Assembly: GCA_965207375.1 (NCBI GenBank)
Contig: OZ242274.1
Span: 1,088,001-1,152,000, forward strand
Reading direction: 5' to 3'
DNA length: 64,000 bases
Source: Nitrosopumilaceae archaeon
GTDB taxonomy: Archaea; Thermoproteota; Nitrososphaeria; Nitrososphaerales; Nitrosopumilaceae
A model generated the notes under the pieces. It was given only the letters and a program-made list of their open reading frames with translations, had not been told where the DNA came from and did not search any database. Shown one piece after another: positions 3,913-22,818 of this stretch (within the stretch, counting starts at the first letter, position 1; each line of letters begins with the position of its first letter). Position numbers and translations under genes: made by a program.

Positions 3913-5922
3913 TTAATTTGCAGTCTCTATTTTCTTCAAGGTGTCAGCTATTTGTTGCCATAATGGATTAGAATATTTTTGAGTGTTGTTTTGAGCCTCT
4001 GCTGCAGTCATAGGATTATCATGTTCTGTAATGTTAAATGCTGCCAAGACTCTATTCCATAAATCAGCTTGTTCTTTTACAGCTTCAATTAAAGTTGCAT
4101 TTATCGTGTATGGTGATTCTGGTACTGGTTCTACTGTAGGTGTTGGTTCTACTGGTTCAACCTGTGGTGTATCTTGAGCAATATTTGATGTGTGATTAAT
4201 CTGTGGTACGTGTATTTCCTGTGGCTCTTGTGGTGGTGTATTTTGTGTTGCATTTTGCTGTTGCTGCTGTTGTTGCTGCTGCTGCTGTTGTTGTTGCTGT
4301 GCAATTGCAGCCTCACGCTCTTGTAAGATATTTGCAATCTTGACCCATAATGGACTAGAGTATTTCTTTGTATTTGCCTGAGCCTCTGCTGCAGTAAGTG
4401 GATTATCATGTTGTATCACTCCAAATGCTGCAAGTGCTCTATTCCATCTGTCAACGTGTTGGTGACCGTGATGTACTTGACTTGCAAGGTACTTTATATC
4501 CTCAATTAGTTCTGGATCAGCTGTAGGTATTAGTATAGATTCTGGTACAATGTATGGTGTATCTTGTGCAATATTTGATGTATGATTAATCTGTGGTACA
4601 TGTATTTCCTGTGGTGAATCTTGAGGTTGCTGTGCGGCTGCATCCCTTGCAGCCTCTAATTTCTTTAATTCTTCATATACCAAATTCCAAAATGGCACGT
4701 TGCTGTATTTTTCTACATTGGCTAGAGCCTCTTCTGCAGTCATAGGATTAGAGTGTTCTATTTCTCCAAATGCTGCCAAGACCCTATTCCATAAATCAAC
4801 GTGTTCTGCACCAAGCTGCGTTTGTGTTGCCATTATCTTTGCACCGTCTATTACTGATGGATCAATTTCATCATACGGATTTTCTGGTATTGGAACGCCA
4901 GTTTTGATGGGGGTTAGGTCACCGCCAATATCATTGTCAGTTATATCAATTGTTATGCTAGAAGACCCAACTATTGTATAAGATGAGTGTGGGCGTATCG
5001 TAAACGTAACACTGCCGTCATTTTCGTTTGCATTATCATTGTTGGTAAATATACCGTAGGCTCTTGTATCTGGAGTTGTTATGTAATTACCTGGTGGTGT
5101 CAAAGAGTCAATGAAATCTCCAGTCTGTGAAATGGTGATATGTACTGCTATGTCCTGACTTGCATCCCACAATGCATTTACTGTTGTGCCTTCAACCACT
5201 GATGGATCCTGCGTATTCCACCTCAAATTACTTATTGTAGGTCCTGTAGGCTGTACAGTGGTAGTAGCACCAAACGAAGCCTCCCAATAATGTTGGCTGC
5301 TTTGTATTATATCTGATGGAGTGTGTGAATGTATCCAGTCATAGAGGTATGGGTTATCTACAGTGCGTTCTACTATTGGTGAAACCTGGACAAGTAGTGA
5401 TTCACCATTTACAACATTTCCTGCGTATGTAGTCCATGAGGCAGTACCTGTATTTGACCCTTCATTGATGGTTATCTTTTTGAAGAGCCAAGGATTGTTG
5501 CCTCTAAATGTTTCAGTGTCGCTGCCAGTGCCACCTACTGTGGCCATATTGAAATTATCACATCTATTTGCTGTACCGTGTGGCTTGGAACTGTGAGATA
5601 ATTGACAGTCATCAATTTGTACCCAAAATTCTATTTTCTCTCCTGTTTTGAGGCTCTCATCTAGAGTTACAGTTACTGTGAAGGGTTGGCCATGAGCTGT
5701 ATTACTGGTTGTGACTTGGGCCTTGTTTATCTTGCCATCATCTCTATAAAATTGAGGGGACATTGTAACGGATGAATCCTCTTGGTGACAGAATTGGTTA
5801 GTCAGTGATTTGGATCTAATGTCCCAACATAACTCATGTTCGGAGAATGCCTCTGGTGTTTGAACACCAAACAATAATGATACTGAAACTGCCATAATAA
5901 CTGCAAAGTATAATGTTTTCAC
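3913..5922 (-). CDS. Secreted variable surface protein, copy 1 (signal peptide, Cys-paired beta-rich N-domain, Calx-beta-like domain, 3 helical repeats, polyQ linker)
   Basis: Hydrophobic N-terminus ending PEAFS. Calx-beta-like SVVEG...NDNANENDGSVTFTI...YTIV...ITDND. Three WNRxLAAF..HxNPxTAxEA repeats. Paralogue at 20643-22778. Confidence 0.85.
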   Translation of the reverse strand: MKTLYFAVIMAVSVSLLFGVQTPEAFSEHELCWDIRSKSLTNQFCHQEDSSVTMSPQFYRDDGKINKAQVTTSNTAHGQPFTVTVTLDESLKTGEKIEFWVQIDDCQLSHSSKPHGTANRCDNFNMATVGGTGSDTETFRGNNPWLFKKITINEGSNTGTASWTTYAGNVVNGESLLVQVSPIVERTVDNPYLYDWIHSHTPSDIIQSSQHYWEASFGATTTVQPTGPTISNLRWNTQDPSVVEGTTVNALWDASQDIAVHITISQTGDFIDSLTPPGNYITTPDTRAYGIFTNNDNANENDGSVTFTIRPHSSYTIVGSSSITIDITDNDIGGDLTPIKTGVPIPENPYDEIDPSVIDGAKIMATQTQLGAEHVDLWNRVLAAFGEIEHSNPMTAEEALANVEKYSNVPFWNLVYEELKKLEAARDAAAQQPQDSPQEIHVPQINHTSNIAQDTPYIVPESILIPTADPELIEDIKYLASQVHHGHQHVDRWNRALAAFGVIQHDNPLTAAEAQANTKKYSSPLWVKIANILQEREAAIAQQQQQQQQQQQQQQQNATQNTPPQEPQEIHVPQINHTSNIAQDTPQVEPVEPTPTVEPVPESPYTINATLIEAVKEQADLWNRVLAAFNITEHDNPMTAAEAQNNTQKYSNPLWQQIADTLKKIETAN
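4255..4299 (-). repeat. CAG/CAA trinucleotide tract encoding Q15
   Basis: 15 consecutive Gln codons. The paralogue has 6 (21084-21101). Confidence 0.95.
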
Positions 5923-5963
5923 AAAATTAACGGGGGGGGGGTTCTAAAAATGTTGCGATTTGA
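5923..5963 (-). promoter_or_regulatory. Putative promoter of copy 1 with C10 homopolymer between TATA-like TTTTTAGAA and GTG start
   Basis: G10 at 5932-5941 on the + strand. The ~40-bp context is identical to that upstream of the paralogue except for tract length. Confidence 0.6.
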
Positions 5964-6038
5964 ACCAAGAGGTAAAATGAATCCATAATTGCCATCTGAG
6001 ACATGATTCATAATTAGATCTGGGCACGGATTTTTGCT

Positions 6039-6146
6039 CTTGTTAGGCGTGATTTTCTAATTACGACTCACCTCTTAGAGGAAACAGGAATATCCGTATG
6101 GACCCTAAACTTGTTAGGCGTGATTTTCTAATTACGACTCACCTCT
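6039..6146. repeat. Two perfect 37-bp direct repeats (CTTGTTAGGCGTGATTTTCTAATTACGACTCACCTCT) separated by 34 bp
   Basis: Copies at 6039-6075 and 6110-6146. Confidence 0.9.
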
Positions 6147-6404
6147 CTGGATTATTTTGACTGCATTTTACCTATACGTACAAACATCAAAAAATGTCTG
6201 TATCTGTTACCTTTGCTTTGAATTTATGGTAATTTTAGGCATCAAATTACCTTTTTAAAAATAGAACAAAAATCTAGGATGATGTTAACTGTTACAAATG
6301 TTTCATGTATCTAGATGAACAGTTATGCCTGTATGATTTTAGATGATCTGAGAAAACCACAGATCAGGCACAACATACAAAAACCAGATAATCGTTTCAC
6401 ATAT

Positions 6405-8000
6405 GTGCAGACAAAATTTATTTTTGTGACAGGCGGTGTTATGTCTGGCCTTGGAAAGGGTGTAACTACTTCCTCTATTGCCAAACTATTGCAACTGACC
6501 AATCAAAAAGTATCTTGTATCAAGATAGATCCATACCTAAACTATGATGCAGGTACGATGAATCCTGTAGCTCATGGGGAGGTCTTTGTCACAGAGGATG
6601 GAGGAGAATGTGATATGGATATTGGAAACTATGAGCGATTTCTAAATCAAAATATTCCAAAATCCCACAATATAACAACTGCCCAGGTTTATTCTAGTGT
6701 TATTGAGGCAGAAAGAAAGGGACAATATCTAGGTGCATGTGTTCAAATCATTCCCCATGTAACTGATGAAATTAAAAAAAGAATAAAGTTGGTTGCAGAA
6801 TCTGAAGAATTGGATATTCTAGTTGTAGAATGCGGCGGAACCGTAGGCGACATTGAAAGTCTACCATTTTTGGAGGCGTTAAGACAGATGAGAGTAGAGG
6901 CTGGATCAGAAAATGTATTGTTTGTACATGTTACACTAGCCCCATCACTAGAGGTGGTAGGGGAGCAAAAAACCAAACCCACACAGCACAGCGTTCAAGA
7001 ATTGCGCAGAATCGGTATTCAACCAGACCTGCTTGCAGTAAGATGTACACAACCGTTGGAGGAAAAGACAAAACAAAAGATTGCATTATTTACCAATGTG
7101 GGAACCAAAGACGTGTTTTCATGTCATGATGTAAAATCAATATTTATGGTTCCACAGATTCTATATGAGCAGGGAATCATTGATACTATATTCAAAAAAT
7201 TTGACAAAGTAGGATTGGTAAACACTGCAAAAAGCTGGGACAAATGGAGTGTCATAGTTCATAACATGACAAATCATGCAGGCAAGGTAAACATAGCAAT
7301 GGTTGGAAAATATGTAACACTAGCAGACAGCTATGTAAGTGTAAATCATGCACTCAAACATGCGGGAGCAAAAATTGGAAAATCGATTTTGATAGACTGG
7401 ATTGATTCTGAAGAGTTGGGAAATACCAGCAAACTGCAAAACTATGATGGAATTTTGGTGCCTGGAGGGTTTGGTACTAGGGGCGCTGAGGGAATCATTC
7501 AGGCAGCAAATCTTGCAAGAGAGAAAAATATTGCATATCTTGGAATTTGTTTTGGATTTCAGCTGGCAGCAGTTGCGTTTGGCCGCAATGTTTGCAATTA
7601 CAAAGAAGCAAACTCTACTGAAATCAATCCCGACACCGAAAATCCAATTATTGATCTGCTGCCAGAGCAAAAAAAGATCTCTGATATAGGGGGCTCACTG
7701 AGACTAGGAGCAAACGACATTCATATACAGGATAACACACTTGCAAGACGCATCTACAATTCAGATATTATTTCAAAAAGGCACCGTCACAGATATGAAA
7801 TAAACAAAGACTATATCCGTGAATTTGCAGACAAGGGATTAATTTTTACCGGACAAAGTGATAATGGTAAAAGAATGGAGATCTTGGAAATTCCAGATCA
7901 TAAATTTTTCCTAGGTGTGCAGTATCACCCAGAATTTAGCAGCAGGCCCGGTTTTCCTGAGGAATCTTTTGAGGCCTTTGTGAGTGCTGCAGCAGGCTAG
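6405..8000 (+). CDS. pyrG: CTP synthase
   Basis: [37 protein letters not shown] and QYHPEF motifs. GTG start at 6405 preferred over 6315. Confidence 0.97.
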
Positions 8001-8419
8001 CAGTATTGCTTTAACCTCTTGATAGAATCGTCAATTTTTGGCAGATCAGACTTAAAATCAGAATTGCCCTCTAAGAGTCTAGTATAATATACGTCAGCAT
8101 CATCTACTGCCTTTATGATGTCTGCCTTGTAGCAAATCATTGCCTTTTCAATAATTTCTGTATCCTTTTCTAATTCTGATAATGTGGATGTATCTGTCAG
8201 ACTTGTACGTAGTCTGTTTGCAATGGGTTTGAGTTTGGGTGTATTTTTTGTGGCTTCTGATTGCAAAATAGAGCCAAACATCGCACCTGTATCTGCAATT
8301 TCTGGACTGTCTGAAATTCGGTGCAATCGCCTGTTATAGTGATTTAATGCACGCATTATAATCTCAAACCCTCCCTCGTTTTTGATAAAAATAGAACCAA
8401 GCCATGTTTTTTCTGCCAA
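7997..8419 (-). CDS. Hypothetical protein
   Basis: 140-aa ORF with normal composition, packed between pyrG and the NAD kinase gene. Confidence 0.7.
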   Translation of the reverse strand: MAEKTWLGSIFIKNEGGFEIIMRALNHYNRRLHRISDSPEIADTGAMFGSILQSEATKNTPKLKPIANRLRTSLTDTSTLSELEKDTEIIEKAMICYKADIIKAVDDADVYYTRLLEGNSDFKSDLPKIDDSIKRLKQYC

Positions 8420-8446
8420 TATGACAATGGTATGTTGCTGTAGTAT

Positions 8447-9448
8447 TTATTCCAACTTGCAAATCTCATAAATTTTTTGCCGTGCATCGCGAATTGAGAT
8501 CTTCTTTTTTACATACCCTTTTTCTAAAAGATGACTCAGTGCCAATCTGACGGTTCTCTCAGGTAACAACGTTTTATTTGCAAGCTCCTTTTGAGTCATC
8601 TCGCCTTCGTACTCTAGCGTCTTTAAGAGCAATTTTGAGCTAGGTGGCATGCTTAATAGCTCCTTTGCAAGATTTACCTTTTTTGCAAGTGCAGAAATTG
8701 CAGTAGAATCTTGTTTTAATCTGATTATTTTGGCAGCAGGAGAGAATCTAGAACACTCTACTAGTTTTTTTACGTTATACCTGATAATGCCGTCTAAAAC
8801 AACCTCACAGTGCATTCTTGCAGAAATATCATCAATCTCGATGGTACTATCATTGGATACTATAAGGGGTCTGCGTGTAACATCAAGCGAATTGACAGAA
8901 ATAATTCCAAATACTGGAGATTCTTGAAAAATCACGGGTCCTCCTGCAGACATTGAATATGCCGATGAGCCTATGGGGGTGGAAATAATTATTCCGTCAC
9001 TGTTGTCATGCCAGACCTCCTGTCCGTTTACACGCAGGGTGTGCTCCATCAACATTGCACTTTTAGATGAAAAAACTGCAACATCATTTAAAATGGTGTA
9101 GGTATTTTTCCCGTCTATTTTCACACCAAGCCTTGGAACCTCCTCGACTTCGTATTTCTTCCTCTTTAGTTTAGATACATATGATACAAACTCTTTGTAA
9201 TCAATTTGTGCCAAAAATCCACTAGCTTCGCCCTCGCTGATTCCAATTACTGGAGTTGTGGCATCACGTGTGTGGTGAAAGTAATTTCGTACTCCCTTAT
9301 CTCCCCCTAAAACCAAAATACAATCTGCTGATTTTGCCTTGGATTTTGGGCCTATGGTAAAATTACCAATGTCTGCATCATCTAAAATTTTCTTAATTTT
9401 TTTAATCGATGATTCAGATACGTCTGTACTGTATATTCCAATCTGCAC
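8447..9448 (-). CDS. NAD(+) kinase with C-terminal winged-helix (MarR-like) domain
   Basis: LGGDKG, LND and DGIIISTPIGSSAYSMSAGGP motifs. C-terminal HTH MTQKELANKTLLPERTVRLAL. Confidence 0.88.
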   Translation of the reverse strand: MQIGIYSTDVSESSIKKIKKILDDADIGNFTIGPKSKAKSADCILVLGGDKGVRNYFHHTRDATTPVIGISEGEASGFLAQIDYKEFVSYVSKLKRKKYEVEEVPRLGVKIDGKNTYTILNDVAVFSSKSAMLMEHTLRVNGQEVWHDNSDGIIISTPIGSSAYSMSAGGPVIFQESPVFGIISVNSLDVTRRPLIVSNDSTIEIDDISARMHCEVVLDGIIRYNVKKLVECSRFSPAAKIIRLKQDSTAISALAKKVNLAKELLSMPPSSKLLLKTLEYEGEMTQKELANKTLLPERTVRLALSHLLEKGYVKKKISIRDARQKIYEICKLE

Positions 9449-9485
9449 ATGGAAATATCAAAATTGTATAATAAAAGCCTACAAA

Positions 9486-10358
9486 CTAGACCTGCTTGAA
9501 ATCAAGCATGTTATAAAAATACGATGCATTAGTAGAAACTGCACCCTTTTCTGGAATTTTTTGCAATCCTATCTGTTTAGTTTCTAATGCAGCCTGTACA
9601 GAACCACCTGCAAAGCACAATGCCCACAATGAATCTCTTTCTTTTAGTATAGTACAGGTAAATATGGCACCAAATATGTCTCCGATTCCTGTCGTATCAT
9701 AAACCTCTTTGTTTGGAATCTTCAAAGAGTACATCCTGTTACCGTCTAGCATCGATATTTGGGTTTTGTTGGTACAAAGCACGTATTTTACACCTAGTTT
9801 TTGTAATTTTTTCATACCCTCAATATCTGATCTGCCTACAAGTTTTTCCATCTCTTCGACATTTGCCTTGATTGCAGTTACGCCCAAAAGATCAATATCT
9901 GTTTTTTCTAAAAATATTCTTGACTCTGCATCTACCCTTCTCAAAAATCCTTGGGGATCCAAAAACACAAACTTTGAATTGCCTTTGATTTTATCAAAGG
10001 TCTCAGAAGATATCTCATCCATAACCGGATTAACAATTACTCCATCTGATTTTGATTCCGTATATGAAATGGGTTCGCACCTGTTTGCAATGTACAGCTG
10101 GCGCTCTGTCCCGTCTATGTTGATTTTAAATTGTGTGGTGGGAATACTTGCTAGTGAATCATCATGCTGAATTTTGTGTGCATCTAAATAGTCAGCACTT
10201 GAAAAATCATCTCCGAATTTTGTATGTAAATTTACATCAAACTTGAATTTTCTAGCCGCATGACTACAATAGCATGCAGAGCCTCCTACCTGTTGATATT
10301 TGGAATCGCCAATGTGTATGTCATCAATTGTACAGTGCGCATAAATGTCCAGCTTCAT
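9486..10358 (-). CDS. PfkB-family carbohydrate kinase
   Basis: GGSACY, LDPQG and DTTGIGDIF anion-hole motif. Confidence 0.85.
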   Translation of the reverse strand: MKLDIYAHCTIDDIHIGDSKYQQVGGSACYCSHAARKFKFDVNLHTKFGDDFSSADYLDAHKIQHDDSLASIPTTQFKINIDGTERQLYIANRCEPISYTESKSDGVIVNPVMDEISSETFDKIKGNSKFVFLDPQGFLRRVDAESRIFLEKTDIDLLGVTAIKANVEEMEKLVGRSDIEGMKKLQKLGVKYVLCTNKTQISMLDGNRMYSLKIPNKEVYDTTGIGDIFGAIFTCTILKERDSLWALCFAGGSVQAALETKQIGLQKIPEKGAVSTNASYFYNMLDFKQV

Positions 10359-10377
10359 TTGCTACAAATGATCCATC

Positions 10378-10485
10378 TCAAGATTTAGGGGTTTGCTTTT
10401 TCTTACAGCTTGCACACAATATTTGCCCCTTTCCTGTAATCAACTCGACATTGGAACTAAGACACATGTGACACAGTCCTTTCAT
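10378..10485 (-). CDS. Small Zn-finger protein, 35 aa (MKGLCHMCLSSNVELITGKGQILCASCKKKQTPKS)
   Basis: Read by hand, below the ORF-track cutoff. Two CxxC motifs, co-oriented upstream of the PfkB gene. Confidence 0.65.
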   Translation of the reverse strand: MKGLCHMCLSSNVELITGKGQILCASCKKKQTPKS

Positions 10486-10596
10486 GCTGTTATTTTATAC
10501 GATGATCTTCCATTAAAGAATAGAGGACAAAACGTCTAGTTTGGACTATAAGATATAAACTGCAAGATTATAAGTAGGAAAAAACCATGCCTACCT

Positions 10597-10884: not shown

Positions 10885-10885
10885 T

Positions 10886-11458: not shown

Positions 11459-11723
11459 GGGATTTTACAAGTTTTGATGTATATATAAAATAGATCCGGC
11501 ATTTGTTCTGTTGGATTGTGTATATTGATTTGCCAAATGATGATGCAAGCCTCTTTACAATGAGACTTTCATTCGTACCCATACATAGGACAAGAGAATA
11601 GCTTTGCTGTGACAATACACTCCATTATAGAAACATCAGAAATTAGATTCAAAAATGCAATTCTTGATAAATGAATCTCACAGACGATTGATTTAATACC
11701 TTTTTAATCCATAATATTACAAT

Positions 11724-11967: not shown

Positions 11968-13404
11968 TAGCGATGCGCAAAAGTTCCTACCCAGCGATTC
12001 TACACAGGACTACGCCAGCACATACAAAATAATGAGAAATCACGCCTGATTTTTTCCAAACTGTACAAAAAAAATACACAAGGTAAGAAAATATCTGCAA
12101 GAACAGTAAAAGATCAGATCGATTTAATCCAAACATGAAAGAGGCCAAGCTCTTATCTGATATACGCAGAACCGAAAAGGAAGGACGTCGTGCCCGAAGA
12201 TTAAGTATGTTAATCGTACTTGCAAATATGGATTACATAGTCACAGCAGCTGCTGTCACATATAGATGCAACAGAAAAACAGTATCACTGTGGCGTGACA
12301 GAAGAATTCAATACGGAAACAACATAAGTAAAATACTCGAGGCACTTTCAGACAGACCTAGGTCAGGCAGACCTACAAAGATAAGCAAAAAACATCTAGA
12401 CAAAGCCAAATCATGGTGTGACATACGCACATTTACGCCAATAGAGATGCAAAATTATCTTGAAAAAATTTCAGGAGTCAAGTTGAGTCTATCACAGACA
12501 AGACGATACATCAAAAAGTGGGGACACTCTTGCAAAAAAACATCTCCCCTGCACATCAAAAGAGCATCACCTGAATCTGTAGCAAAATGGTATACAAGCA
12601 GCATGGGCAAAGTGAGATACTATGCAAAGCAAGGATATGCAATAGCTACCATGGATGAGTCCCACTTTAAGGACGCAGTGCTTTCTACAAAATACTGGGC
12701 AAAGAGAGGCCTTTGCATATTCATGCCATGGTCAGGCGGACACCACAGATTCTCAATGCTGTGTACTATAACTGATAATGGCAAGCACTTTTTCAATCAT
12801 ACAGACAAAGTAAACACTGACAGCTTTTTAGAGCACATTGAAAAAGTATACCAAAAGGTGGGCAAGATGGTATTGTTTTTGGATGAGGCACCCTGGCATG
12901 CATCTATTGGTGCACAAGAATTTTTCGAAAAACGAGACATTGTATTGATATGGTATCCTGTGGGTCATCCGTATCTTAATCCCGTAGAGGAGATCTGGAG
13001 TGTACTCAAGCGTACAATTGATTACTCTATACGATACTCAGACATCAAGACACATTTGACAGCAGTATACGGATTTATCAAAAAATATGAGTTTGATTAT
13101 GATTTAAAAAAACATTGGAAGAGAAAACCTCCTGCTGGTATAATGCGACCCTTTGTGCGCTCTGACACAAAACACAATGATAGGATCCAGGCATTACAGG
13201 TAAGCAGTAAGCCAAGAAATCGTAACTGAACTATACATGTATTGATGGTTTGTACAATTGTTGTATGTATTTACAAAATGATACCGTGTGGAATCATCAT
13301 GCTGTCTTTGCTTAATCTTGGTGTATTGTGTAAGTTGTGTAAGATTTTATTCCTGCGTCTAGTTTGCTGATTTTGTGCTGGGTACGAACTTTTGCGCATC
13401 GCTA
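11968..13404 (+). mobile_element. IS630-family insertion sequence
   Basis: 28-bp TIRs TAGCGATGCGCAAAAGTTC(C/G)TACCCAGC (11968-11995, 13377-13404), each flanked by TA. Confidence 0.92.
12135..13229 (+). CDS. IS630 transposase
   Basis: HTH with RSGRP. DDE triad MDES / FLDEAPWH / LNPVEEIW. Confidence 0.93.
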   Translation: MKEAKLLSDIRRTEKEGRRARRLSMLIVLANMDYIVTAAAVTYRCNRKTVSLWRDRRIQYGNNISKILEALSDRPRSGRPTKISKKHLDKAKSWCDIRTFTPIEMQNYLEKISGVKLSLSQTRRYIKKWGHSCKKTSPLHIKRASPESVAKWYTSSMGKVRYYAKQGYAIATMDESHFKDAVLSTKYWAKRGLCIFMPWSGGHHRFSMLCTITDNGKHFFNHTDKVNTDSFLEHIEKVYQKVGKMVLFLDEAPWHASIGAQEFFEKRDIVLIWYPVGHPYLNPVEEIWSVLKRTIDYSIRYSDIKTHLTAVYGFIKKYEFDYDLKKHWKRKPPAGIMRPFVRSDTKHNDRIQALQVSSKPRNRN

Positions 13405-15381: not shown

Positions 15382-16154
15382 TACGAATTCACCAATTTCC
15401 TCACATGCTCTTTGATATTATCGCTTTTCATTACGCTAGAGCCTACCAGAAATGCGTCTGCCCCGCATTTTTTCAGATATTGAATGTCTTTGGGCGTGTT
15501 TATGCCGCTTTCTGAGAGTATGGGTATAGTCTTTTCAAACCCGTCTAGTATGTGCCGTGTGGTGTTTAGATCTATTTTTAGCGTGTCTAGATCCCGATTG
15601 TTGATTCCAACCAAATCTGCATCCGTTTTTAACGCATTTTCTAATTCTATTCTTGTATGGGCCTCTACTAGTATTTTGAGTCCCTTTTTGTGACCGTATC
15701 GTATCAGCTCATCGATTCCGTCTAAATATCCCTTGTCAAATAACGACTGGATTAATAAAATATAGTCTGCTCCAATTTTTTGGCCTGCATCTATTTGTAT
15801 TTTATCAATTATGATATCCTTCATTAGCAATGGGACATTTACTGCATCTCTTACCTTGATAAAGTATTGAGGTGATCCACTGAAAAGATATGGCTGTGTC
15901 AAAACAGACAGTGCCTTTGAGCCTCCAGATACCATCTGCCTTGCAATTAGTGCGGGATCTGATGCCGTCCTGATTTTGCCTAGCGACGGAGATGCAAATT
16001 TTATCTCAGTAATTAGTGTGGCATGCGGATTTGTCCTGATGATACCTGTAAGATCTTGGGTAGATTTTTTCATATTTGCAGATACCTCGTATACTCCGTC
16101 ATCTATTGCAGCCTGAGAATTGTTAACTAGTTTTTTGAGAATATTTTCTGTCAA
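15378..16154 (-). CDS. trpC: Indole-3-glycerol phosphate synthase
   Basis: [21 protein letters not shown] and SESGI motifs. Confidence 0.95.
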
Positions 16155-17194
16155 TCTGTCACCTCTTTTAATTTTTTGAGATCTCCTGTATCTCGAACAA
16201 ACTCCTCTAATAGCCTGTATGCACGTCCGCTCTTTATTGTGTGTAGTGCAGTCTGTACTGCCTCCTTGAAATCATCTTCAACATTTGCTACAATCAACCC
16301 GCCTGCTGCATTGAGGGCCGTAGTTTCAATCATTGCCTGGTTGGCAGTGTTGTTTAGTACTGTAACAAATGATTTTATCGCATCCTGTTTTGTTTTAATT
16401 TGAATCTGACTCATTGATGACTTGTGCAATCCTACCGTTTCAGGATCCACAGAATCGGTCAAAATTTTACCGTCTTTTAGAATTGCTATTTTGTTTGCAG
16501 CACTAGTTGAGAATTCATCCATTCCATCATCTGATATGACCGTCATTATGTTTTGTGCCCCCTTTTGTCCTAGTATTGTAGGCAGTCTGCACAAAAAATC
16601 AGCCGAGGATACGCCGACTAGTTGGTTTTTTACCCCTGCTGGATTACACAGCGGACCTAATAGATTAAACGCCGTTCTTTTTGCAATCTGCTTTCTTGCA
16701 AAAGACACATGTTTCATTGCAGGGTGAAATTTTTGTGCAAACATAAAACAAATTCTATGTTTCTCTAGGATTTGTGCAATTGACGCAGGCCCCTGATTCA
16801 GATCATATCCAAAATATTCAAAAATATCTGCACTGCCTGATACTCCTGAACTTGAACGATTACCGTGCTTTGCAACAGTTCCGCCTGCTGCAGCAACTAC
16901 AAATGATGCCGTGGTAGATACATTAAATGTTTGAAGTCTGTCTCCTCCGGTACCGCACATGTCAATTATGGTGCTGTGATTTTTAGGCTCAATTTTGAGT
17001 GAATATTCTTGCATTTTGTCTAGCATTGCCAATAGTTCATCGTCAGTTTCCCCCTTTGTTGCAAGCTTTGACAAAAATTGGATATTTTCGTCATCACTTG
17101 TTTTTCCAGATAAAATCTCTGTCATGATTTGATTCATTTGATTATAGCTCAGACTGGTTTTTTCCTGTAGCATTGAGATCATATCTGATATCAT
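16151..17194 (-). CDS. trpD: Anthranilate phosphoribosyltransferase
   Basis: DMCGTGGD, NVST, KHGNRS and FNLLGPL motifs. Confidence 0.96.
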   Translation of the reverse strand: MISDMISMLQEKTSLSYNQMNQIMTEILSGKTSDDENIQFLSKLATKGETDDELLAMLDKMQEYSLKIEPKNHSTIIDMCGTGGDRLQTFNVSTTASFVVAAAGGTVAKHGNRSSSGVSGSADIFEYFGYDLNQGPASIAQILEKHRICFMFAQKFHPAMKHVSFARKQIAKRTAFNLLGPLCNPAGVKNQLVGVSSADFLCRLPTILGQKGAQNIMTVISDDGMDEFSTSAANKIAILKDGKILTDSVDPETVGLHKSSMSQIQIKTKQDAIKSFVTVLNNTANQAMIETTALNAAGGLIVANVEDDFKEAVQTALHTIKSGRAYRLLEEFVRDTGDLKKLKEVTD

Positions 17195-17778
17195 TGTTTT
17201 ACCTCCTCTATGAAATTGCTCAGGATTTTTTTGCCCTCTTGCGTCATAATTGATTCGGGATGAAACTGAACTCCCTCTATGAGATAGTTTCGGTGTCGTA
17301 TTGCCATGATTTCACCGTCATCTTCTGCAGTTGCAGTTACCTCCAAAATGTTTGGAATTACAGTCTTGTCTCCAACTAGTGAGTGATACCTTGTGGCTCT
17401 AAATGGATTCTTTACTCCTTTGAATAATTTTGAATTTTTGTGACGTACGGGACTGGTTTTTCCATGTCTTACACATCCTGCATTTGTGACCTTGCCTCCA
17501 AATGCGTGTATGATGCCCTGATGTCCTAGACACACTCCGAGTATTGGTTTTGTCGGCCCCATCTCTCTGATAACCTCACTACATACTCCAAAATATTTTT
17601 TATCTTCAGGTGTTCCGGGACCCGGTGAAATTATTATTGCATCATAATTTTTTACCTTGATATCTGTTAATGTTATTTTGTCGTTTCTTATGACATCTGA
17701 ATCCACTCCCAACTCACCTAGGTACTGTGCTATATTGTATACAAATGAGTCATAATTGTCAATGATTAAAAATCTCAT
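17191..17778 (-). CDS. trpG: Anthranilate synthase component II
   Basis: IDNYDSF, SPGPG, GVCLGHQ, RYHSL and QFHPES motifs. Confidence 0.95.
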   Translation of the reverse strand: MRFLIIDNYDSFVYNIAQYLGELGVDSDVIRNDKITLTDIKVKNYDAIIISPGPGTPEDKKYFGVCSEVIREMGPTKPILGVCLGHQGIIHAFGGKVTNAGCVRHGKTSPVRHKNSKLFKGVKNPFRATRYHSLVGDKTVIPNILEVTATAEDDGEIMAIRHRNYLIEGVQFHPESIMTQEGKKILSNFIEEVKQ

Positions 17779-19124
17779 GATGTCTCCTTTAATGACTGAA
17801 TCATTGCATCTGCCTTGTGTTGTGTCTCTTTGAACTCGCTTTCTGGAACCGAATCTGAAACAATGCCTGCCCCAGACTGGACAAATCCAGAATTTCCATC
17901 AATGAATATGCTTCTTATGGCTATTGCAAAATCACAGCATCCATTAAACGAAAAATATCCTACAGCCCCCGCATATGTGCCCCTTGCCTCTGATTCTAAC
18001 TCATCTATTATTTGCATGGCTCGAACCTTTGGAGCTCCTGATACAGTACCTGCCGGAAAAACTGCCTTGAATGCATCAAACATGTCCTTTTTGGAATCTA
18101 GTGTTCCAACAACGTGTGTAACTATGTGCTGAACATGACTGAATCGTTTGATTTTCATCAATTCCTCAGGATGTACAGTTCCGTATCTGCAAACTCTTCC
18201 AATGTCATTTCTTCCCAAATCTACAAGCATTGTGTGCTCTGCTAATTCCTTTTGGTCCGACAGCAGCTCGGCTGCTAGCTCTTGGTTTGTTTGCTCATCG
18301 TCTGTAACCTTTTTGGTTCCTGCAATTGGAAATGTTTCAACCTTGTTTTGCGTAACTCTTACTAGCATCTCAGGTGATGCTCCAATTATTGTTTTGGTGT
18401 TGTGTTTTAGATGATACATGTAAGGTGAAGGATTTAGACTTCTCAAGGTTTTATACAGTGTTAGATTGTCCCCATTTGCCTCAAAGTTGAATTTTCTAGA
18501 CAATACGACTTGAAAAATATCTCCATCGTGTATGTATTGTTTTGCCTTTTTGACAATAGTTGAAAATTTTTGTTCATCTGCGTTTGGAACAATCTCTGAT
18601 GCTCTAAACTCTTTGAATTCTCCTTGTGATATTTTGAACTGCTCAAATCTGTTTTGATCATAATAAAAATAAAATAATTTCTCATGTAAATTATCATACA
18701 ACAATCCATCGTCATAAATCCCAAATTCCATTAATGGTTCTATTGTATCATGTGAATCTGCAATGTCCTCTACTAGTCTAATGGCATCATAGTTTACAAC
18801 TCCTACTGCCCCACCTAGATATCTGTATGATTGTTCGTCGTTATTTCCCAACAGTTTTTTTAGCTCAGAAAATGGATCACTTGTTTTTACCGTCTTGATT
18901 TTACCTTCTTTGGAGATTATCTTGACTTTGTCAGAGTATCCCTTTAGAATTATTTTGGGATCAAATCCCATTACTGAGGTTTCTGCAAGCTTTTCTGGCC
19001 CTGTTAGTGATTCGAACAAAAACGAATGTGAATAGTTGCGAGAGATTTTATTGTAAATTTGAAACTGGTTTTCAGATAACTCTAGAGGTATTATTTTTGG
19101 TTGGGAATTTCCAAAGGTATCCAC
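17775..19124 (-). CDS. trpE: Anthranilate synthase component I
   Basis: GDIFQVVLSR, NPSPY, ASPE, EHTMLVDLGRND and PAGTVSGAPK motifs. Confidence 0.96.
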   Translation of the reverse strand: MDTFGNSQPKIIPLELSENQFQIYNKISRNYSHSFLFESLTGPEKLAETSVMGFDPKIILKGYSDKVKIISKEGKIKTVKTSDPFSELKKLLGNNDEQSYRYLGGAVGVVNYDAIRLVEDIADSHDTIEPLMEFGIYDDGLLYDNLHEKLFYFYYDQNRFEQFKISQGEFKEFRASEIVPNADEQKFSTIVKKAKQYIHDGDIFQVVLSRKFNFEANGDNLTLYKTLRSLNPSPYMYHLKHNTKTIIGASPEMLVRVTQNKVETFPIAGTKKVTDDEQTNQELAAELLSDQKELAEHTMLVDLGRNDIGRVCRYGTVHPEELMKIKRFSHVQHIVTHVVGTLDSKKDMFDAFKAVFPAGTVSGAPKVRAMQIIDELESEARGTYAGAVGYFSFNGCCDFAIAIRSIFIDGNSGFVQSGAGIVSDSVPESEFKETQHKADAMIQSLKETS

Positions 19125-19198
19125 CCATAAACAAAATTACAGTCAAATATTATTTAAGTTGTAGAGTTTTTTACCTCGATATTCTGCCTAGATTACGT

Positions 19199-19226
19199 TA
19201 CCGTACCGGTACGGTACCTTTATATC
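19199..19226 (+). promoter_or_regulatory. Perfect 18-bp palindrome TACCGTACCGGTACGGTA abutting TATA-like TTTATAT
   Basis: Palindrome at 19199-19216. The TATA-like box lies ~25 bp upstream of the ATG at 19248. Confidence 0.6.
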
Positions 19227-19247
19227 ATATTTGATCGCATGTATATC

Positions 19248-19409
19248 ATGCAGGTATTATCTATTTACAGGCCAACGTTGAGCAAATCCTCTGCTCATAG
19301 GGTAGGGTGTCATGTATGTGGAAAGGGATTAGAGGACGGCTTTTCTGTAACTGCTAAAACAATTCGCAATGATATTGTATTATTTTGTGATGCACACTAC
19401 AAAATCTAG
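19248..19409 (+). CDS. Small metal-binding protein, 53 aa (CHVC...CDAH)
   Basis: Read by hand: MQVLSIYRPTLSKSSAHRVGCHVCGKGLEDGFSVTAKTIRNDIVLFCDAHYKI. TATA box at a plausible distance. Confidence 0.7.
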   Translation: MQVLSIYRPTLSKSSAHRVGCHVCGKGLEDGFSVTAKTIRNDIVLFCDAHYKI

Positions 19410-19468
19410 TCTACGTCTTACTAATCACAAACAACTAGGATTATAATTGTAAAATATCTAAAATCTTT

Positions 19469-20539
19469 ATGGATGATCTTTATAGATTTTTACCAGAGGA
19501 GTTGGAAGATATAGTAATCCGATTGGGCCAGAAGCGATTCAGGGCTGATCAAATCTTACTTCCGTTATACTACAAATATCCCCAAAAAATTGACGACATA
19601 AGGCAGCTATCTAAAATATTTCGTCAATTGCTAAATGAAAAAAAATACACAATCGGTTCTACTACTGAGATACACCGTGTGGTAAGCGATGATGGCTGCA
19701 CTACAAAATTATTGCTAAATTTACCAGATGGTACTCCTGTTGAATCTGTACTTATGCAGTATGGGCCAACAAAAATACTTGGACATCCACGATCTACTGT
19801 ATGTGTGTCTACGCAGGTGGGCTGTGCAATGGGATGTGTTTTTTGTGCCACAGGACAGATGGGTTTTAAAAGACAGATGAGGGCAGAAGAAATTGTAGGT
19901 CAGGTAATTCACTTTTCCAAAATGCTAAAAGAAAAAGATCAACATATTACAAATATTGTCTTTATGGGAATGGGTGAGCCGCTTGCAAACTATGATGAAA
20001 CCATACGTGCGATTAGAATTCTAACCCATCCTAGGGGTTTTGGATTGGGACAGAGGCACATTACAGTTTCTACCATCGGAATCATTTCTGGAATTGACAG
20101 ACTTGCACAAGAGAATCTGCAAATAGGCCTTGCTATTTCTTTGCATGCTCCAAACGATAAACTACGCAGAAAATTAATTCCCACTGCAGGACCTACCTCT
20201 GTTGCCGATATTATTGCAGCAGGACGCAGATATTTTATGAAAACTGGTAGACGTGTTACTTTTGAATATGCCTTGATTTCAGGAATAAATGATACTGTTG
20301 AAGTGGCACATGAATTGGCCAGACTTTTACAAGGTAACGGCTCACATGTCAATTTGATTCCAATTAATGCAACAGATGGTGATTTTAACAGACCTGCAAG
20401 AAAGCAGGTCTTGGAATTTGAGAAAATTTTACTTCTTGCAGGCATAAATTGTACCGTTCGGGTTGAAAAGGGTGCAGAAATTGCTGCTGCCTGTGGTCAG
20501 CTGCGTACTGATGTTGTAAATAACCAAACTGTACATTAG
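19469..20539 (+). CDS. rlmN: Radical SAM RNA methyltransferase RlmN/Cfr family
   Basis: CVSTQVGCAMGCVFC, MGMGEP, ISLHA, NLIP and AACGQL motifs. Confidence 0.9.
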   Translation: MDDLYRFLPEELEDIVIRLGQKRFRADQILLPLYYKYPQKIDDIRQLSKIFRQLLNEKKYTIGSTTEIHRVVSDDGCTTKLLLNLPDGTPVESVLMQYGPTKILGHPRSTVCVSTQVGCAMGCVFCATGQMGFKRQMRAEEIVGQVIHFSKMLKEKDQHITNIVFMGMGEPLANYDETIRAIRILTHPRGFGLGQRHITVSTIGIISGIDRLAQENLQIGLAISLHAPNDKLRRKLIPTAGPTSVADIIAAGRRYFMKTGRRVTFEYALISGINDTVEVAHELARLLQGNGSHVNLIPINATDGDFNRPARKQVLEFEKILLLAGINCTVRVEKGAEIAAACGQLRTDVVNNQTVH

Positions 20540-20642
20540 AGTTAATTGGCAAATTCTGCCAAAATTTACTTAAGATTTGCAACATGTGCTGACTTGTGTT
20601 TTATCAAATACTGGCAACAAATGTTAGACCGTTAAGCCGTGT

Positions 20643-22778
20643 TTAATTTGTAGCCTCTATTTTCTTTAAGGTGTCAGCTATTTGTTGCCATAGTGGATTA
20701 GAATATTTTTGGGTATTGTTTTGGGCTTCGGCTGCAGTCATAGGATTATCATGTTCTGTAATGTTAAATGCTGCCAAGACTCTATTCCATAAATCAGCTT
20801 GTTCTTTTACAACTTCAATTAAAGTTGCATTTATCGTGTATGTTGGTTCAGGTACTGGTTCTACTATAGGTGTTGGTTCTACTATAGGTGTTGGTTCTAC
20901 TATAGGTGTTGGTTCTACTATAGGTGTTGGTTCTACTATAGGTGTTGGTTCTACTATAGGTGTTGGTTCTACTATAGGTGTTGGTTCTACCTGTGATGTA
21001 TCTTGAGCAACGGCTGATGTTTGGTTAACCTGTGGTACGTGTATTTCCTGTGGCTCTTGCTGTGGTGTATTTTGTGTTGCATTTTGCTGCTGCTGCTGTT
21101 GTTCAATTGCAGCCTCACGCTCTTGTAAGATATTTGCAATCTTGACCCATAATGGACTAGAATATTTCTTTGTATTTGCCTGTGCCTCTGCTGCAGTAAG
21201 TGGATTATCATGTTGTATCACTCCAAATGCTGCAAGTGCTCTATTCCATCTGTCAACATGTTGGTGACCGTGATGTACTTGACTTGCAAGGTACTTTATG
21301 TCCTCAATTAGTTCTGGGTCAGCTGTAGGTATTGGTATAGATTCTGGTACAATTATCGGTGTATCTTGTGCGATATTTGATGTGTGGTTAATTTGTGGTA
21401 CGTGTATTTCCTGTGGTTGCTGTGGTGAATCTTGAGGTTGCTGTGCGGCTGCATCCCTTGCAGCCTCTAATTTAGCCAGTTCTTGAGCAACTAAACCCCA
21501 AAATGCATTATTGTATTTTTTTACATTGGCCAGAGCCTCTGCTGCAGTCATAGGATTGTCATGTTGTATTTCTCCAAATGCTGCCAAGACCCTATTCCAT
21601 CTGTCAACGTGTTCTGCACCAAGATGAGTTTGTTGTGCCATTATCTTTGCACCGTCTATTACTGATGGATCAATTTCATCATACGGATTTTCTGGTATTG
21701 GAACACCGGTTGTGAGTCTGGGTTGTCCGTCACCGCCACCATCATCATCCTGTATTAAGATTACAGCACGCGATGGGTCACCTATAGTATATCCATTACC
21801 TGGAAGTAACGTAAATGTGACGCTTCCATCTGCTTCATCTGTGGAATCATCTAATGTAGCTAGACTGACAGTCCGGGCGTTTGATGTTAATATAATTGAC
21901 CTATCGTTCAGTTCAAAATTAAGCCGAGCATATTCTCCTACTTGGGAAGTTCGATAATTTACTGTTACAGGATTTATTGATGTGGCTGGAGGTGATATAG
22001 TTATTTCTGCTATAACGGTAGCACCTTCAATCACTGATACAGGATTAATTGTGGAAGGTAGAATTGTCACTACATTAGCTGTTCCAATCTGTGTCTCCCA
22101 AAAATGTTGGCTAGCATACCTTGCATCAGACGGATTATTTGGATGTATCCACTCATGGAGGTATGGGCTATCTACAGTGCGTTCTACTATAGGTGAAACC
22201 ATGACAAGTAGTGATTCGGGACTGCCACCATAATTGGCTACATTTGTAGACCATGAGGCACTACCTGTATTTGACCCTGCATTGATGGTTATCTTTTTGT
22301 AGGTGACAGGAAGGTAGGTGGGGTTGGTTCCTAAATCCCTGTCGGCCGTGCTACTGTAGGTTGCAAATGTTTCAGTGTCGCTGCTAGTGCCGCCGAGGGT
22401 GGCATGAGTGGTACTACTACATAGGTTTGCTGCACTTGACCTGACAGAAGCGTGAGATGCATGACAGTCATTAAGCTGTGCATAAAATTCTATTTTCTCT
22501 CCTGTTTTGAGGTGCTCATCTAGAGTTACAGTTACTGTGATGGGTTGACCAGAAGCGGGATTGTTTAGTGTGACTAGGGCTCTGTTTATCTCATTGTCAT
22601 CTGTATAAAATTGAGGGGCCATTGTAACGGATGGCACAATTGGGTGACAGGCAGTGTGGAAATTCGTTTCGCCGTTTATGCGGCAAAGCACATGGTCAGA
22701 AAATGCCTCTGGTGTTTGAACACCGAGCAATAATGATATAGAAACTGCCATAATAACTGCAAAGTATAATGTTTTCAC
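20643..22778 (-). CDS. Secreted variable surface protein, copy 2
   Basis: Same architecture as 3913-5922. Calx-beta-like VIEG...TLDDSTDEADGSVTFTLLPGNGYTIG...IQDDD. Confidence 0.85.
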   Translation of the reverse strand: MKTLYFAVIMAVSISLLLGVQTPEAFSDHVLCRINGETNFHTACHPIVPSVTMAPQFYTDDNEINRALVTLNNPASGQPITVTVTLDEHLKTGEKIEFYAQLNDCHASHASVRSSAANLCSSTTHATLGGTSSDTETFATYSSTADRDLGTNPTYLPVTYKKITINAGSNTGSASWSTNVANYGGSPESLLVMVSPIVERTVDSPYLHEWIHPNNPSDARYASQHFWETQIGTANVVTILPSTINPVSVIEGATVIAEITISPPATSINPVTVNYRTSQVGEYARLNFELNDRSIILTSNARTVSLATLDDSTDEADGSVTFTLLPGNGYTIGDPSRAVILIQDDDGGGDGQPRLTTGVPIPENPYDEIDPSVIDGAKIMAQQTHLGAEHVDRWNRVLAAFGEIQHDNPMTAAEALANVKKYNNAFWGLVAQELAKLEAARDAAAQQPQDSPQQPQEIHVPQINHTSNIAQDTPIIVPESIPIPTADPELIEDIKYLASQVHHGHQHVDRWNRALAAFGVIQHDNPLTAAEAQANTKKYSSPLWVKIANILQEREAAIEQQQQQQNATQNTPQQEPQEIHVPQVNQTSAVAQDTSQVEPTPIVEPTPIVEPTPIVEPTPIVEPTPIVEPTPIVEPTPIVEPVPEPTYTINATLIEVVKEQADLWNRVLAAFNITEHDNPMTAAEAQNNTQKYSNPLWQQIADTLKKIEATN
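20857..20990 (-). repeat. 18-bp VNTR, 7 perfect units plus a partial unit (GGTTCTACTATAGGTGTT), encoding VEPTPI
   Basis: Counted directly. Copy 1 has only ~2 degenerate units at 4126-4162. Confidence 0.95.
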
Positions 22779-22818
22779 AAAATTAACGGGGGGGGGTTCT
22801 AAAAATGTTGCGATTTGA
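22779..22818 (-). promoter_or_regulatory. Putative promoter of copy 2 with C9 homopolymer
   Basis: G9 at 22788-22796, otherwise identical to 5923-5963. Confidence 0.6.

Follow-up and report, generated by a model that had tools for sequence, protein, structure and literature searches.

Stochastic variation of surface proteins by homopolymeric tracts and recombining paralogues is a textbook strategy of host-associated bacteria and eukaryotic parasites. In Neisseria, Haemophilus, Campylobacter and Helicobacter, poly-G/C tracts lie in the promoters or 5' coding regions of surface-protein genes, and the opa genes constitute a paralogous family that recombines. The Vlp lipoproteins of Mycoplasma hyorhinis are encoded by full-length paralogues with a conserved 5' region and signal peptide and divergent external parts; the length of a poly-A tract located between the -35 and -10 boxes of the sigma-70 promoter sets the ON/OFF state of each gene, and the external region differs in length through in-frame tandem repeats. 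Mosaic surface proteins also arise in Plasmodium (var), Trypanosoma (VSG) and Borrelia (vlsE), by segmental gene conversion among paralogues.

Surface variation of these kinds is essentially undocumented in archaea, with hardly any literature. For archaeal tracts, only a general survey was found, which covers poly-A/T tracts in the coding regions of 18 archaeal genomes, and a passage of a 2025 review leaves archaeal phase-variation loci to future surveys. The general concept of contingency loci is outlined in two articles (PMC2831843; PMC11868660).

A family of modular proteins with a four-Cys head

The window, which is the whole 64,000-nucleotide stretch of DNA analysed here, includes two related minus-strand ORFs, P0001 and P0002, which are present as the first-pass annotation had described them (Table 1). 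The region from 3913 to 22778 had also been described as a surface-protein 'system', a term that does not hold, because what separates the two copies is a set of housekeeping genes, namely CTP synthase, NAD kinase, a transposase, the trp operon and an RlmN-like radical-SAM gene. Also, the two ORFs are genuine family members but are not the only pair: nine full-length paralogues, including P0001 and P0002, are scattered over one 2.16-Mb archaeal chromosome, which also bears amoA. The start codon is GTG in eight paralogues and TTG in one. The best reading of the sequences is a lineage-specific multigene family of modular secreted proteins in an ammonia-oxidising Nitrosopumilaceae-type archaeon, which bears out the placement in Thaumarchaeota implied by the first-pass annotation.

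Table 1. Positions of the two family genes, their protein-coding parts and their upstream elements within the window.
Feature	Position	Strand
Paralogue G = P0001, 669 aa	3913..5922	-
P0001 C-terminal part: three four-helix repeats and linkers	3913-4917	-
P0001 Calx-beta-fold middle domain	about 4918-5268	-
P0001 four-Cys beta-sandwich head	about 5269-5841	-
P0001 signal peptide	5842-5922	-
P0001 spacer, 9 nt, GTTAATTTT on the gene strand, from poly-C tract to GTG start codon	5923..5931	-
P0001 homopolymeric tract, C10 on the gene strand (G10 on +), candidate slipped-strand switch	5932..5941	-
P0001 conserved upstream element CAAATCGCAACATTTTTAGAA including the TATA-like box, common to 9/9 paralogues	5942..5962	-
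Paralogue A = P0002, 711 aa	20643..22778	-
P0002 C-terminal repeats and linkers	20643-21743	-
P0002 perfect tandem repeat, 18 nt x 7.5 copies, coding for the (EPTPIV)n linker	20856..20990	-
P0002 Calx-beta-fold middle domain	about 21744-22082	-
P0002 head	about 22083-22697	-
P0002 signal peptide	22698-22778	-
P0002 spacer, 9 nt, from poly-C tract to GTG start codon	22779..22787	-
P0002 homopolymeric tract, C9 on the gene strand (G9 on +)	22788..22796	-
P0002 upstream element with TATA-like box, same as the P0001 element	22797..22817	-

Each paralogue consists of a signal-peptide-like N-terminus, a four-Cys beta-sandwich head, a domain of Calx-beta fold and three four-helix-bundle repeats. The linkers between the helical repeats are disordered and of low complexity, polyQ or Pro/Thr-rich (pLDDT in the predicted model: <50 for the linkers, 85-95 for the helical repeats). 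The N-terminus (MKTLYFAVIMAVSISLLLGVQTPEAFS) has, as judged by eye, the look of a Sec signal peptide, and the sequences suggest that the paralogues are secreted or surface proteins; neither a recognisable membrane or cell-wall anchor nor a lipobox was found in them.

The C-terminal helical module (hereafter C-repeat) is also present on 11 further ORFs with different heads (Ig-like, coiled-coil or unknown; one comprises three PF16403 Ig-like domains), which brings the number of C-repeat ORFs to 20. The first-pass annotation had passed over the nine-copy count, these 11 ORFs and the poly-C promoter-like element on every copy.

A Pfam search of P0001 and P0002 gave no match, including for the four-Cys head, and no characterised family was matched, in agreement with the initial failure to recognise a described one. 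The predicted middle domain (model residues 206-319) superimposes on CALX-CBD1 (3ead_A; Z 11.7, rmsd 2.2, 102 residues aligned), with further structural matches to 3gin_A (Z 11.4) and 3fq4_A (Z 11.2), and none of ten middle domains matches PF03160 by sequence at E <= 0.1. According to the model, the middle domain is a very divergent beta-sandwich of Calx-beta type. Calx-beta repeat adhesin-like proteins of bacterial symbionts (hits P0006-P0021), which bear PF03160, align with it by sequence; they have the same middle-domain fold and some also bear one helical C-repeat motif. P0001 and P0002 differ from these proteins in their single Calx-like domain, which the Pfam model does not recognise, and in having three helical repeats and a family-less head. 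Two uncharacterised protein modules are defined here, the four-Cys head and the four-helix C-repeat.

Mosaic ancestry of the paralogues

P0001 and P0002 are 72% identical over their full length, 59-61% in the head alone and 48% in the head plus middle domain. The near-identity noted at first between their signal peptides and C-terminal halves amounts to 25 of 27 residues and 90%, respectively. Their alignment also contains all of the quoted conserved blocks, the two unrelated Cys-closed loops, the insertion after SDTETF and four invariant Cys residues (C32, C45, C106 and C121 in P0001 numbering). The (EPTPIV)n repeat of P0002 is absent from P0001 in the pairwise alignment. A quoted 26-mer occurs exactly twice in the window without mismatch (5656-5681 and 22515-22540; chance expectation 0). 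Matching of the blocks at third codon positions was likewise reproduced: in 20-codon windows, pS is 0.00-0.10 in the blocks versus 0.5-0.7 in the loops and middle domain.

Among the nine copies, the nearest paralogue switches from one part of the gene to another (identity is 95-100% in some windows of 90 nt but <50% in others), and synonymous divergence ranges from 0 to 0.7, jumping from about 0 to saturation. In the PHI test, z was -24.4 for the head and -15.1 for the C-terminal part, and in both cases none of 1000 permutations reached the observed value; the saturated middle domain gave no significant signal (125/1000 permutations). These switches, the range of synonymous divergence and the permutation results support gene conversion between paralogues. 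Segment clusters defined at 90% nucleotide identity are mutually incompatible between segments: in Cys-loop 1, paralogue A clusters with B, and G with F and I, yet in the b2/b3 loop A and G cluster together. Every variable segment comes in a few discrete types, which are combined differently from copy to copy. Several full-length paralogues of statistically supported mosaic ancestry are present, as in a recombining family.

Diversifying selection or segmental gene conversion had been offered as explanations of the pattern. Conversion on a conserved framework is supported by the PHI test, the incompatible clusters and the switching neighbours. Diversifying selection was not demonstrated because dN/dS in the head is about 0.75-0.8 (about 0.8, and hence <1, for the head as a whole). 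With strands and loops set from an AF2 model, dN/dS is 0.77 in strands and 0.74 in loops; loops exceed strands about 1.8-fold in both pS and pN, and only 3 of 36 pairs have a loop pN greater than pS. Values of dN/dS >1 occur in only two short segments of closely related pairs, where counts are small and non-independent. From the strand order, we infer that the variable loops are located at the pole of the head that is most distant from the stalk.

A dN/dS <1 would also be expected of ordinary old paralogues, in which loops are unconstrained and strands are under purifying selection with neither gene conversion nor any special mechanism of variation, and conservation of strands over loops is generic in beta-sandwiches. 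This explanation is very improbable, as the blocks are conserved at synonymous sites too, dN/dS is alike in strands and loops, and the PHI results, the incompatible segment clusters and the switching nearest neighbours all speak against it.

Programmed antigenic variation of the classical type, using an expression site with silent partial cassettes (pilE/pilS, vlsE, VSG) or a diversity-generating retroelement, would account for a framework with hypervariable loops, but is extremely unlikely here. A relaxed tblastn search with all nine heads as queries gave no head fragments outside the nine loci; its off-locus matches were the Calx-like middle domains of three other family genes and one short pseudogene fragment. 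All nine copies are full-length, each with its own promoter-like element. In addition, all 40 reverse-transcriptase (RVT_1) matches are on contigs C2-C4 and none is on the archaeal chromosome (contig C1), and the differences between copies are whole cassettes, not adenine-targeted substitutions. The family resembles var, VSG and vlsE in its mosaic proteins derived from paralogue gene conversion, whereas neither an archive of silent cassettes nor a single expression site was found, and each copy looks expressible on its own.

The length of the shared segments could mislead assemblers, and short-read contigs break inside these genes, with many cross-paralogue joints. Even so, the mosaic is very unlikely to be an artefact in which near-identical paralogues were joined into chimeras. 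P0002 head pieces recur with 0 differences in independent contigs of two runs (21787-22280 in X1; 22273-22685 in X1 and X3), all nine ORFs are intact with no frame breaks, and the same type of family with tracts is found in other genomes. Contigs of the second sample include a 413-nt P0002 head piece with 0 differences; the two samples thus showed no loop variation in this comparison, in which contigs hide rare variants.

Homopolymeric tracts at the 5' ends

All nine paralogues have a C9-12 tract 8-9 nt upstream of the start codon and downstream of a TATA-like box; a long mononucleotide repeat is thus placed in the promoter/5' coding region, as in contingency loci. The TATA-like box of the family begins about -27 to -29 from the start codon, and TATA-like motifs over 957 ORFs peak at -31 to -28. 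The family genes probably have leaderless mRNAs. On the whole chromosome, 15 of the 19 C/G runs of at least 9 nt are at 5' ends of the C-repeat superfamily, where about 0.03 would be expected by chance. Five of the 20 C-repeat ORFs are without such a tract; the 15 that bear one reduce to about three independent sequence contexts in the genome because the copies are related. In two C-repeat relatives, the tract is inside the signal-peptide codons, in frame in one and out of frame in the other: an intragenic C11 leaves the signal peptide open, and C10 in the sister gene leads to a stop after 18 codons.

Similar runs are present in four other thaumarchaeal genomes. Genome G115 has C11 located 7 nt upstream of an ATG, and genome G099 has G10 within signal-peptide codons, out of frame. 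In G099, a duplicate (2 x 7001 nt) has 0 mismatches, and its sole difference is C13 versus C9 upstream of a C-repeat gene, for which an assembly error is possible; tract-length differences between copies or duplicates may partly be homopolymer errors of long-read assembly. In two named thaumarchaeal MAGs, all five C-repeat genes with the 5' end present bear 10-15 nt runs there, and one MAG gene is a homologue of the head family (TTTAAAAA-CA-C13-6 nt-ATG). None of three bacterial homologues has a 5' run of this kind.

The tract has the same length (C10) in six of the nine head-family copies, its flanks are strongly conserved, and it is conserved across genera, as expected of a regulatory element. 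In a recombining mosaic family, poly-C might therefore be a promoter element with a fixed cis-regulatory or structural function, inherited along with the genes, and not a stochastic switch. It might act as a spacer, bind a protein or RNA, or form an i-motif or G-quadruplex. This explanation is on balance unlikely. Against it are the C13/C9 difference between otherwise identical 7001-nt copies, the occurrence of intragenic tracts both in frame and out of frame, the spread of lengths from 9 to 15 nt over genes and genomes with either C or G as the coding-strand base, and searches for MutS_V and NucS_C domains, in which no MutS or NucS gene that would stabilise the runs was found.

A candidate phase-variable repertoire and its implications

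The explanation that we favour, at somewhat better than even chances, is a phase-variable and recombining repertoire of surface proteins, with the tract as a candidate switch read from the sequence. Poly-C tracts would change in length through replication slippage. In an upstream tract, such a change would move the TATA box nearer to or further from the start codon of an mRNA that is probably leaderless, and in an intragenic tract it would shift the reading frame, with the result that each copy would be turned on or off stochastically. Recurrent gene conversion among the paralogues would homogenise the C-terminal module and the framework, and the same process would reshuffle the loop cassettes of the head among paralogues. 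Slippage and gene conversion together would generate a variable repertoire of extracellular binding proteins.

A close parallel is the Vlp system, with which the family shares several full-length paralogues, a conserved 5' region and signal peptide, divergent external parts, a homopolymer at the promoter and in-frame tandem repeats. The Vlp proteins are bacterial lipoproteins with sigma-70 promoters and poly-A tracts, whereas the promoters here are of the archaeal TATA type, poly-C is located between box and start codon, and there is no lipobox. In addition, the C-terminal helical module is conserved and the N-terminal beta-sandwich is variable in this family of candidate switching genes. The likeness to bacterial contingency loci lies in long G/C homopolymers at the 5' ends of secreted or surface-protein genes, both upstream and intragenic, in in-frame and out-of-frame alleles, and in paralogous families that recombine, as for opa; the differences are the archaeal host, the unrelated protein domains and the candidate status of switching here.

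Relatives of these genes are found in the MAGs of both other thaumarchaea and co-occurring bacterial lineages, which suggests that the likely role is to attach to a host or phage, to be recognised by it or to evade it. The C-repeat is present in thaumarchaeal as well as bacterial MAGs and is therefore a candidate for mediating interaction with a partner common to both. It is conceivable, at somewhat less than even chances, that Archaea have here their first clear example of bacterial-style contingency loci. A thaumarchaeal symbiont lineage would then switch individual family members through slippage-prone poly-C/G tracts, located either between TATA box and start codon of leaderless genes or within signal-peptide codons, and inter-paralogue conversion would reshuffle the loop cassettes of a previously undescribed four-Cys head; the two would make up an archaeal system of antigenic and adhesive variation directed at a host or viruses. 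If the tracts really switch, host-associated ammonia-oxidising archaea would share both the recognition-evasion problem of bacterial symbionts and pathogens and its solution. The solution would here use archaeal promoter architecture, with the tract setting the spacing between TATA box and start codon, and would offer a natural way to examine how that spacing affects the selection of transcription starts and leaderless translation.

Two window genes and their relatives

Both ORFs flagged by the first-pass annotation, P0001 and P0002 (paralogues G and A), are real, and their alignment bears out the described alternation of conserved blocks with unrelated segments. The proteins are identical at 25 of 27 residues of the signal-peptide-like N-terminus, at 90% of the C-terminal half and at 59–61% of the head, where the differing segments include two unlike Cys-closed loops and an indel after SDTETF. 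The 26-mer quoted in that annotation occurs exactly twice in the window. Conserved blocks do match at third codon positions, as had been claimed: over windows of 20 codons, synonymous differences reach a proportion of 0.00–0.10 in these blocks versus 0.5–0.7 in the loops and the middle domain.

The genome-wide collection of paralogues yields nine full-length copies of the same architecture (A–I; signal peptide, four-Cys head, Calx-beta-fold middle domain and C-terminal half), two of them in the window, all on the archaeal chromosome contig C1 of this genome (G000) and scattered from 70 kb to 1.43 Mb. Eleven further G000 ORFs have only the C-terminal module in common with these nine, giving a superfamily of 20 ORFs with the four-helix C-repeat, which is present three times per paralogue. 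Pfam analysis of eight of the 11 products found three PF16403 Ig-like domains in one, a coiled coil in another and no family in the rest. Two degraded family members are also present (see table); one is a fragment with stops that runs from the end of the middle domain through the first C-repeat, and the other is broken over multiple frames with a C10 tract kept. The linkers of both window genes also hold slippage-prone repeats, and polyQ runs in the linkers of the nine paralogues range from about 6 to >40 residues. Pfam and NCBIfam scans of P0001 and P0002 gave nothing meaningful and the literature search found no description of this protein family, in line with the initial statement that no described family with this architecture was recognised in Thaumarchaeota.

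The head appears to be rare outside G000. Its relatives there are one ENA protein (P0005), a DUF642-bearing group (P0013, P0064, P0074), P0046 from a named Thaumarchaeota MAG and a protein in genome G021 (29% identical). A profile of 630 positions, including two full-length rows, gave 150 listed matches in the representative library, the majority of them Calx-beta or C-repeat proteins; P0064, P0074 and P0046 alone among these 150 match the head, a count that is no measure of head rarity. Of 301 genomes sampled from the taxonomic family, three have the C-repeat: G000 and a pair from another genus. The module is also found in many proteins encoded on a small number of long ENA/NCBI contigs, and in five MAGs, two of them thaumarchaeal and three bacterial (Binatia, Tepidiformaceae, Acidimicrobiia). 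Neither head nor C-repeat was found in four same-genus genomes, apart from one weak Calx-like match. Large bacterial proteins rich in Calx-beta domains contain the four-helix motif as well (MAGs of Binatia, Tepidiformaceae, Acidimicrobiia and Chloroflexi; loci L076–L078; proteins P0007, P0008, P0020), suggesting that the C-repeat module has been exchanged between co-occurring lineages.

C1 is 2,156,695 bp long with 38% GC and holds the window. Archaeal amoA in the genome of the assembly, archaeal housekeeping genes as window neighbours (ThrRS with archaeal editing domain, arginase, CTP synthase, NAD kinase, trp operon, IlvD and aRF1), and relatives in 'Thaumarchaeota archaeon' and 'Nitrosopumilaceae archaeon' MAGs together identify the organism as an ammonia-oxidising thaumarchaeon, as first proposed. 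The further proposal of a functional system spanning 3913–22778 is rejected because the intervening genes are housekeeping genes unrelated to the two flagged ORFs. Contigs C2, C3 and C4 of the same assembly have an ORF coverage of 9–17% versus 75% on C1, carry all 40 of the 40 reverse-transcriptase matches of G000, and contain dinucleotide microsatellites and retrotransposon pol-like ORFs. Roughly half of the 4.30-Mb 'genome' is eukaryotic-looking, probably because host DNA was binned together with that of the archaeon; the real chromosome is therefore taken to be C1, at 2.16 Mb.

Coordinates of the paralogues, repeats, tracts and neighbouring features
Sequence	Position	Strand	Feature
Window	3913–5922	-	P0001, paralogue G, 669 aa
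Window	4255–4299		linker with slippage-prone repeat
Window	12135–13229	+	IS630-like transposase gene (DDE_3/HTH_32) between the two paralogues, adjoining trp operon
Window	20643–22778	-	P0002, paralogue A, 711 aa
Window	20856–20990		perfect 18-nt repeat, 7.5 copies, encoding (EPTPIV)n linker of P0002; absent from P0001
G000 C1	1254045–1254428		degraded family member
G000 C1	1778011–1795404		5793-aa ORF; run of 11 G (gene strand) 1 nt upstream
G000 C1	2021174–2024770		degraded family member
G099 C1 (L065, L069)	838500–845500; 1631226–1638226		exact duplication, at least 7 kb, two C-repeat genes inside
MAG RHO2_bin_25 (L071)	1–49		contig end, run of 49 C
MAG RHO2_bin_25 (L071)	2954–3169		seven C/G runs of 9–15 nt within about 270 nt upstream of C-repeat gene

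Domain structure and mosaic heads

In an AlphaFold2 model of residues 27–345 (12-row alignment, mean pLDDT 74), the head is a seven-stranded beta-sandwich in which low confidence coincides exactly with Cys-loop 1, Cys-loop 2 and the b6–b7 loop. Residues 206–319 adopt a Calx-beta fold by model comparison (3ead_A, Z 11.7, rmsd 2.2 over 102 residues; 3gin_A, Z 11.4; 3fq4_A, Z 11.2) despite the lack of a match to the Calx-beta Pfam model, and this domain dominates the structure-comparison rows for the whole model. From the strand order in the model, Cys-loop 1 and the b2–b3, b4–b5 and b6–b7 connections would sit at the pole farther from the Calx-like domain and Cys-loop 2 (b3–b4) at the proximal pole, placing four of the five variable segments distal to the stalk. 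The head profile has no detectable relative among PDB sequences, the best hit (OspA, E 0.024) being judged compositional, and no relation to the middle-domain profile (hhalign probability 0.7%). The C-terminal half is modelled as three separate four-helix units (pLDDT 85–95) with disordered linkers between them. Foldseek gave no match for it at E <= 0.001, and VIA reached a Z of at most 6.2, with generic four-helix bundles; searches of the ESM Atlas returned nothing usable for the C-repeat and head scores all <0.8. In these comparisons the four-helix units have no specific structural relative, and no function is drawn from the structure.

In a nine-way codon alignment, the most similar paralogue switches every few tens of codons, and identity between paralogues is 95–100% in some 90-nt windows and <50% in others. 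Each variable segment comes in a small number of discrete types, of which Cys-loop 1, for example, has four ({C,D,E}, {F,G,I}, {A,B} and {H}). The groupings by type conflict between segments: SLKTGEK is found only in the window copies A and G, which differ in Cys-loop 1 type. In a PHI test (own implementation, 1000 permutations), the observed value is 0.453 versus a permuted mean of 0.640 for the head and 0.420 versus 0.578 for the C-terminal part, with none of the 1000 permutations as low in either case; the saturated middle domain is not significant (125/1000). The switching nearest paralogue, the incompatible segment types and the PHI result point to repeated gene conversion between paralogues, which would also explain the identity of framework blocks at third codon positions. 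Plain divergence of paralogues is rejected on the synonymous conservation of the blocks together with the switches and the PHI result.

The first-pass annotation had offered diversifying selection or segmental gene conversion on a ligand-binding head; gene conversion is upheld and diversifying selection is not. With strands and loops taken from the AlphaFold2 model to avoid circularity, mean head pN/pS over 36 paralogue pairs is 0.80 in loops, much like the 0.79 in strands, and loop pN exceeds pS in only three pairs; the three C-repeats have values of 0.25–0.48. Ratios above 1 are seen only in closely related segment pairs, which are few and not independent: 20 non-synonymous versus 3 synonymous differences in Cys-loop 1 (ratio 1.56) and 30 versus 4 in the b5–b7 segment (ratio 2.60). 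These values indicate relaxed or mixed selection, positive selection on head segments being only hinted at. A silent-cassette archive and a diversity-generating retroelement (DGR) were rejected as sources of the variation, given that no silent head cassettes were found in G000 and no reverse transcriptase on C1; the family thus belongs neither to cassette-type antigenic variation nor to DGR systems. The sequencing runs are assembled contigs broken inside the paralogues, and their many cross-paralogue joints are uninterpretable.

C/G tracts at the 5' ends of C-repeat genes

Alignment of the upstream regions shows that homology of the nine paralogues reaches about 45 nt beyond the start codon, with the common sequence CAAATCGCAACATTTTTAGAA, then C9–12, then GT(T)AATTT(T/C), then GTG (TTG in one copy). 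The tract is 9 nt long in P0002, 10 nt in six copies including P0001, and 11 and 12 nt in the others. C1 has only 19 C/G runs of at least 9 nt, and 15 of them each sit at the 5' end of a different C-repeat ORF (15 of the 20), where about 0.03 would be expected with random placement, although these represent only about three independent contexts in G000 because the copies share ancestry. In type 1 (ten genes), the layout is TATA box, tract, 8–9 nt and start codon. In type 2 (two sister genes), the tract is inside signal-peptide codons: the frame is open in the sister with C11 (MKTLHFTVTPPPVNYIIFLAVV...), and in that with C10 the frame runs into a stop after 18 codons, and the restarted long ORF lacks the N-terminal portion of the signal peptide. 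Type 3 (three genes) has C9 located 23 nt upstream of ATG, and a fourth tract of this layout precedes a degraded copy. One of the remaining three long runs is directly upstream of the 5793-aa ORF, which may encode another tract-controlled giant surface protein.

Tracts are also found at C-repeat gene 5' ends of other thaumarchaea, in unrelated sequence contexts at 46–65% GC. Genome G115 has C11 located 7 nt upstream of ATG; its orthologue in genome G099 has G10 inside signal-peptide codons, which is out of frame, and by count on the sequence one more G (G11) would restore the frame. In another two G099 genes, C13/C9 and C10 closely precede the start. In MAG RHO2_bin_25, a head-family homologue has TTTAAAAA-CA-C13-TGTGCC-ATG and two more genes have runs of 10–15 nt at the 5' end; in MAG p16x60bins.31, G12 and G15 occur at two 5' ends. 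In these two MAGs, a run is present in all five genes whose 5' end is on the contig, and bacterial homologues have one at the predicted start in none of three. Metagenome pattern scans for the promoter-tract element gave no matches. The best evidence that the tract may be hypermutable is the G099 duplicate, whose two 7001-nt copies have no mismatches and differ solely in the tract preceding a C-repeat gene (C13 in one, C9 in the other), with the caveat that homopolymer lengths are the weakest point of long-read assemblies.

Tract-based switching as a candidate mechanism

Upstream of 957 long ORFs on C1, TATA-like heptamers show a sharp maximum at -31 to -28 relative to the start codon (78 summed over these four positions, versus a background of few per position), suggesting that many transcripts of this archaeon are leaderless or nearly so. 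In the paralogue family, the T-run of the box starts between -27 and -29 according to the lengths of tract and spacer, so that lengthening or shortening the tract would shift the transcription start with respect to the start codon. In an intragenic tract, it would cause a plain frameshift. Searches of the G000 genome gave no match to MutS_V (PF00488) or NucS_C (PF01939), with controls giving matches; because no such homologue was found, mismatch or indel repair may be lacking and slippage loops may go unrepaired.

The closest functional analogues would be bacterial contingency loci and promoter-tract families, the latter including Mycoplasma Vlp and the neisserial opa/opc/porA genes; all of these differ from the archaeal family in having no homology to it. 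A survey of 18 archaeal genomes concerns, in the part consulted, mainly poly-A/T tracts in coding regions (PMC2831843), and archaeal phase-variation loci are named as future work in a passage of another paper (PMC11868660). An excerpt of a 2025 preprint states that contingency loci have already received study in archaea (10.1101/2025.10.21.683753). The main text of a study of sponge Thaumarchaeota lists eukaryote-like and surface domains, this family not among them (PMC7848895). The literature search found no description of poly-C/G tracts at thaumarchaeal surface-protein genes. In five of the genomes compared, all thaumarchaeal, tracts cluster at superfamily 5' ends, and both on-like and off-like alleles occur; this added finding raises the interest of the family and would be consistent with tract-based switching of its members.
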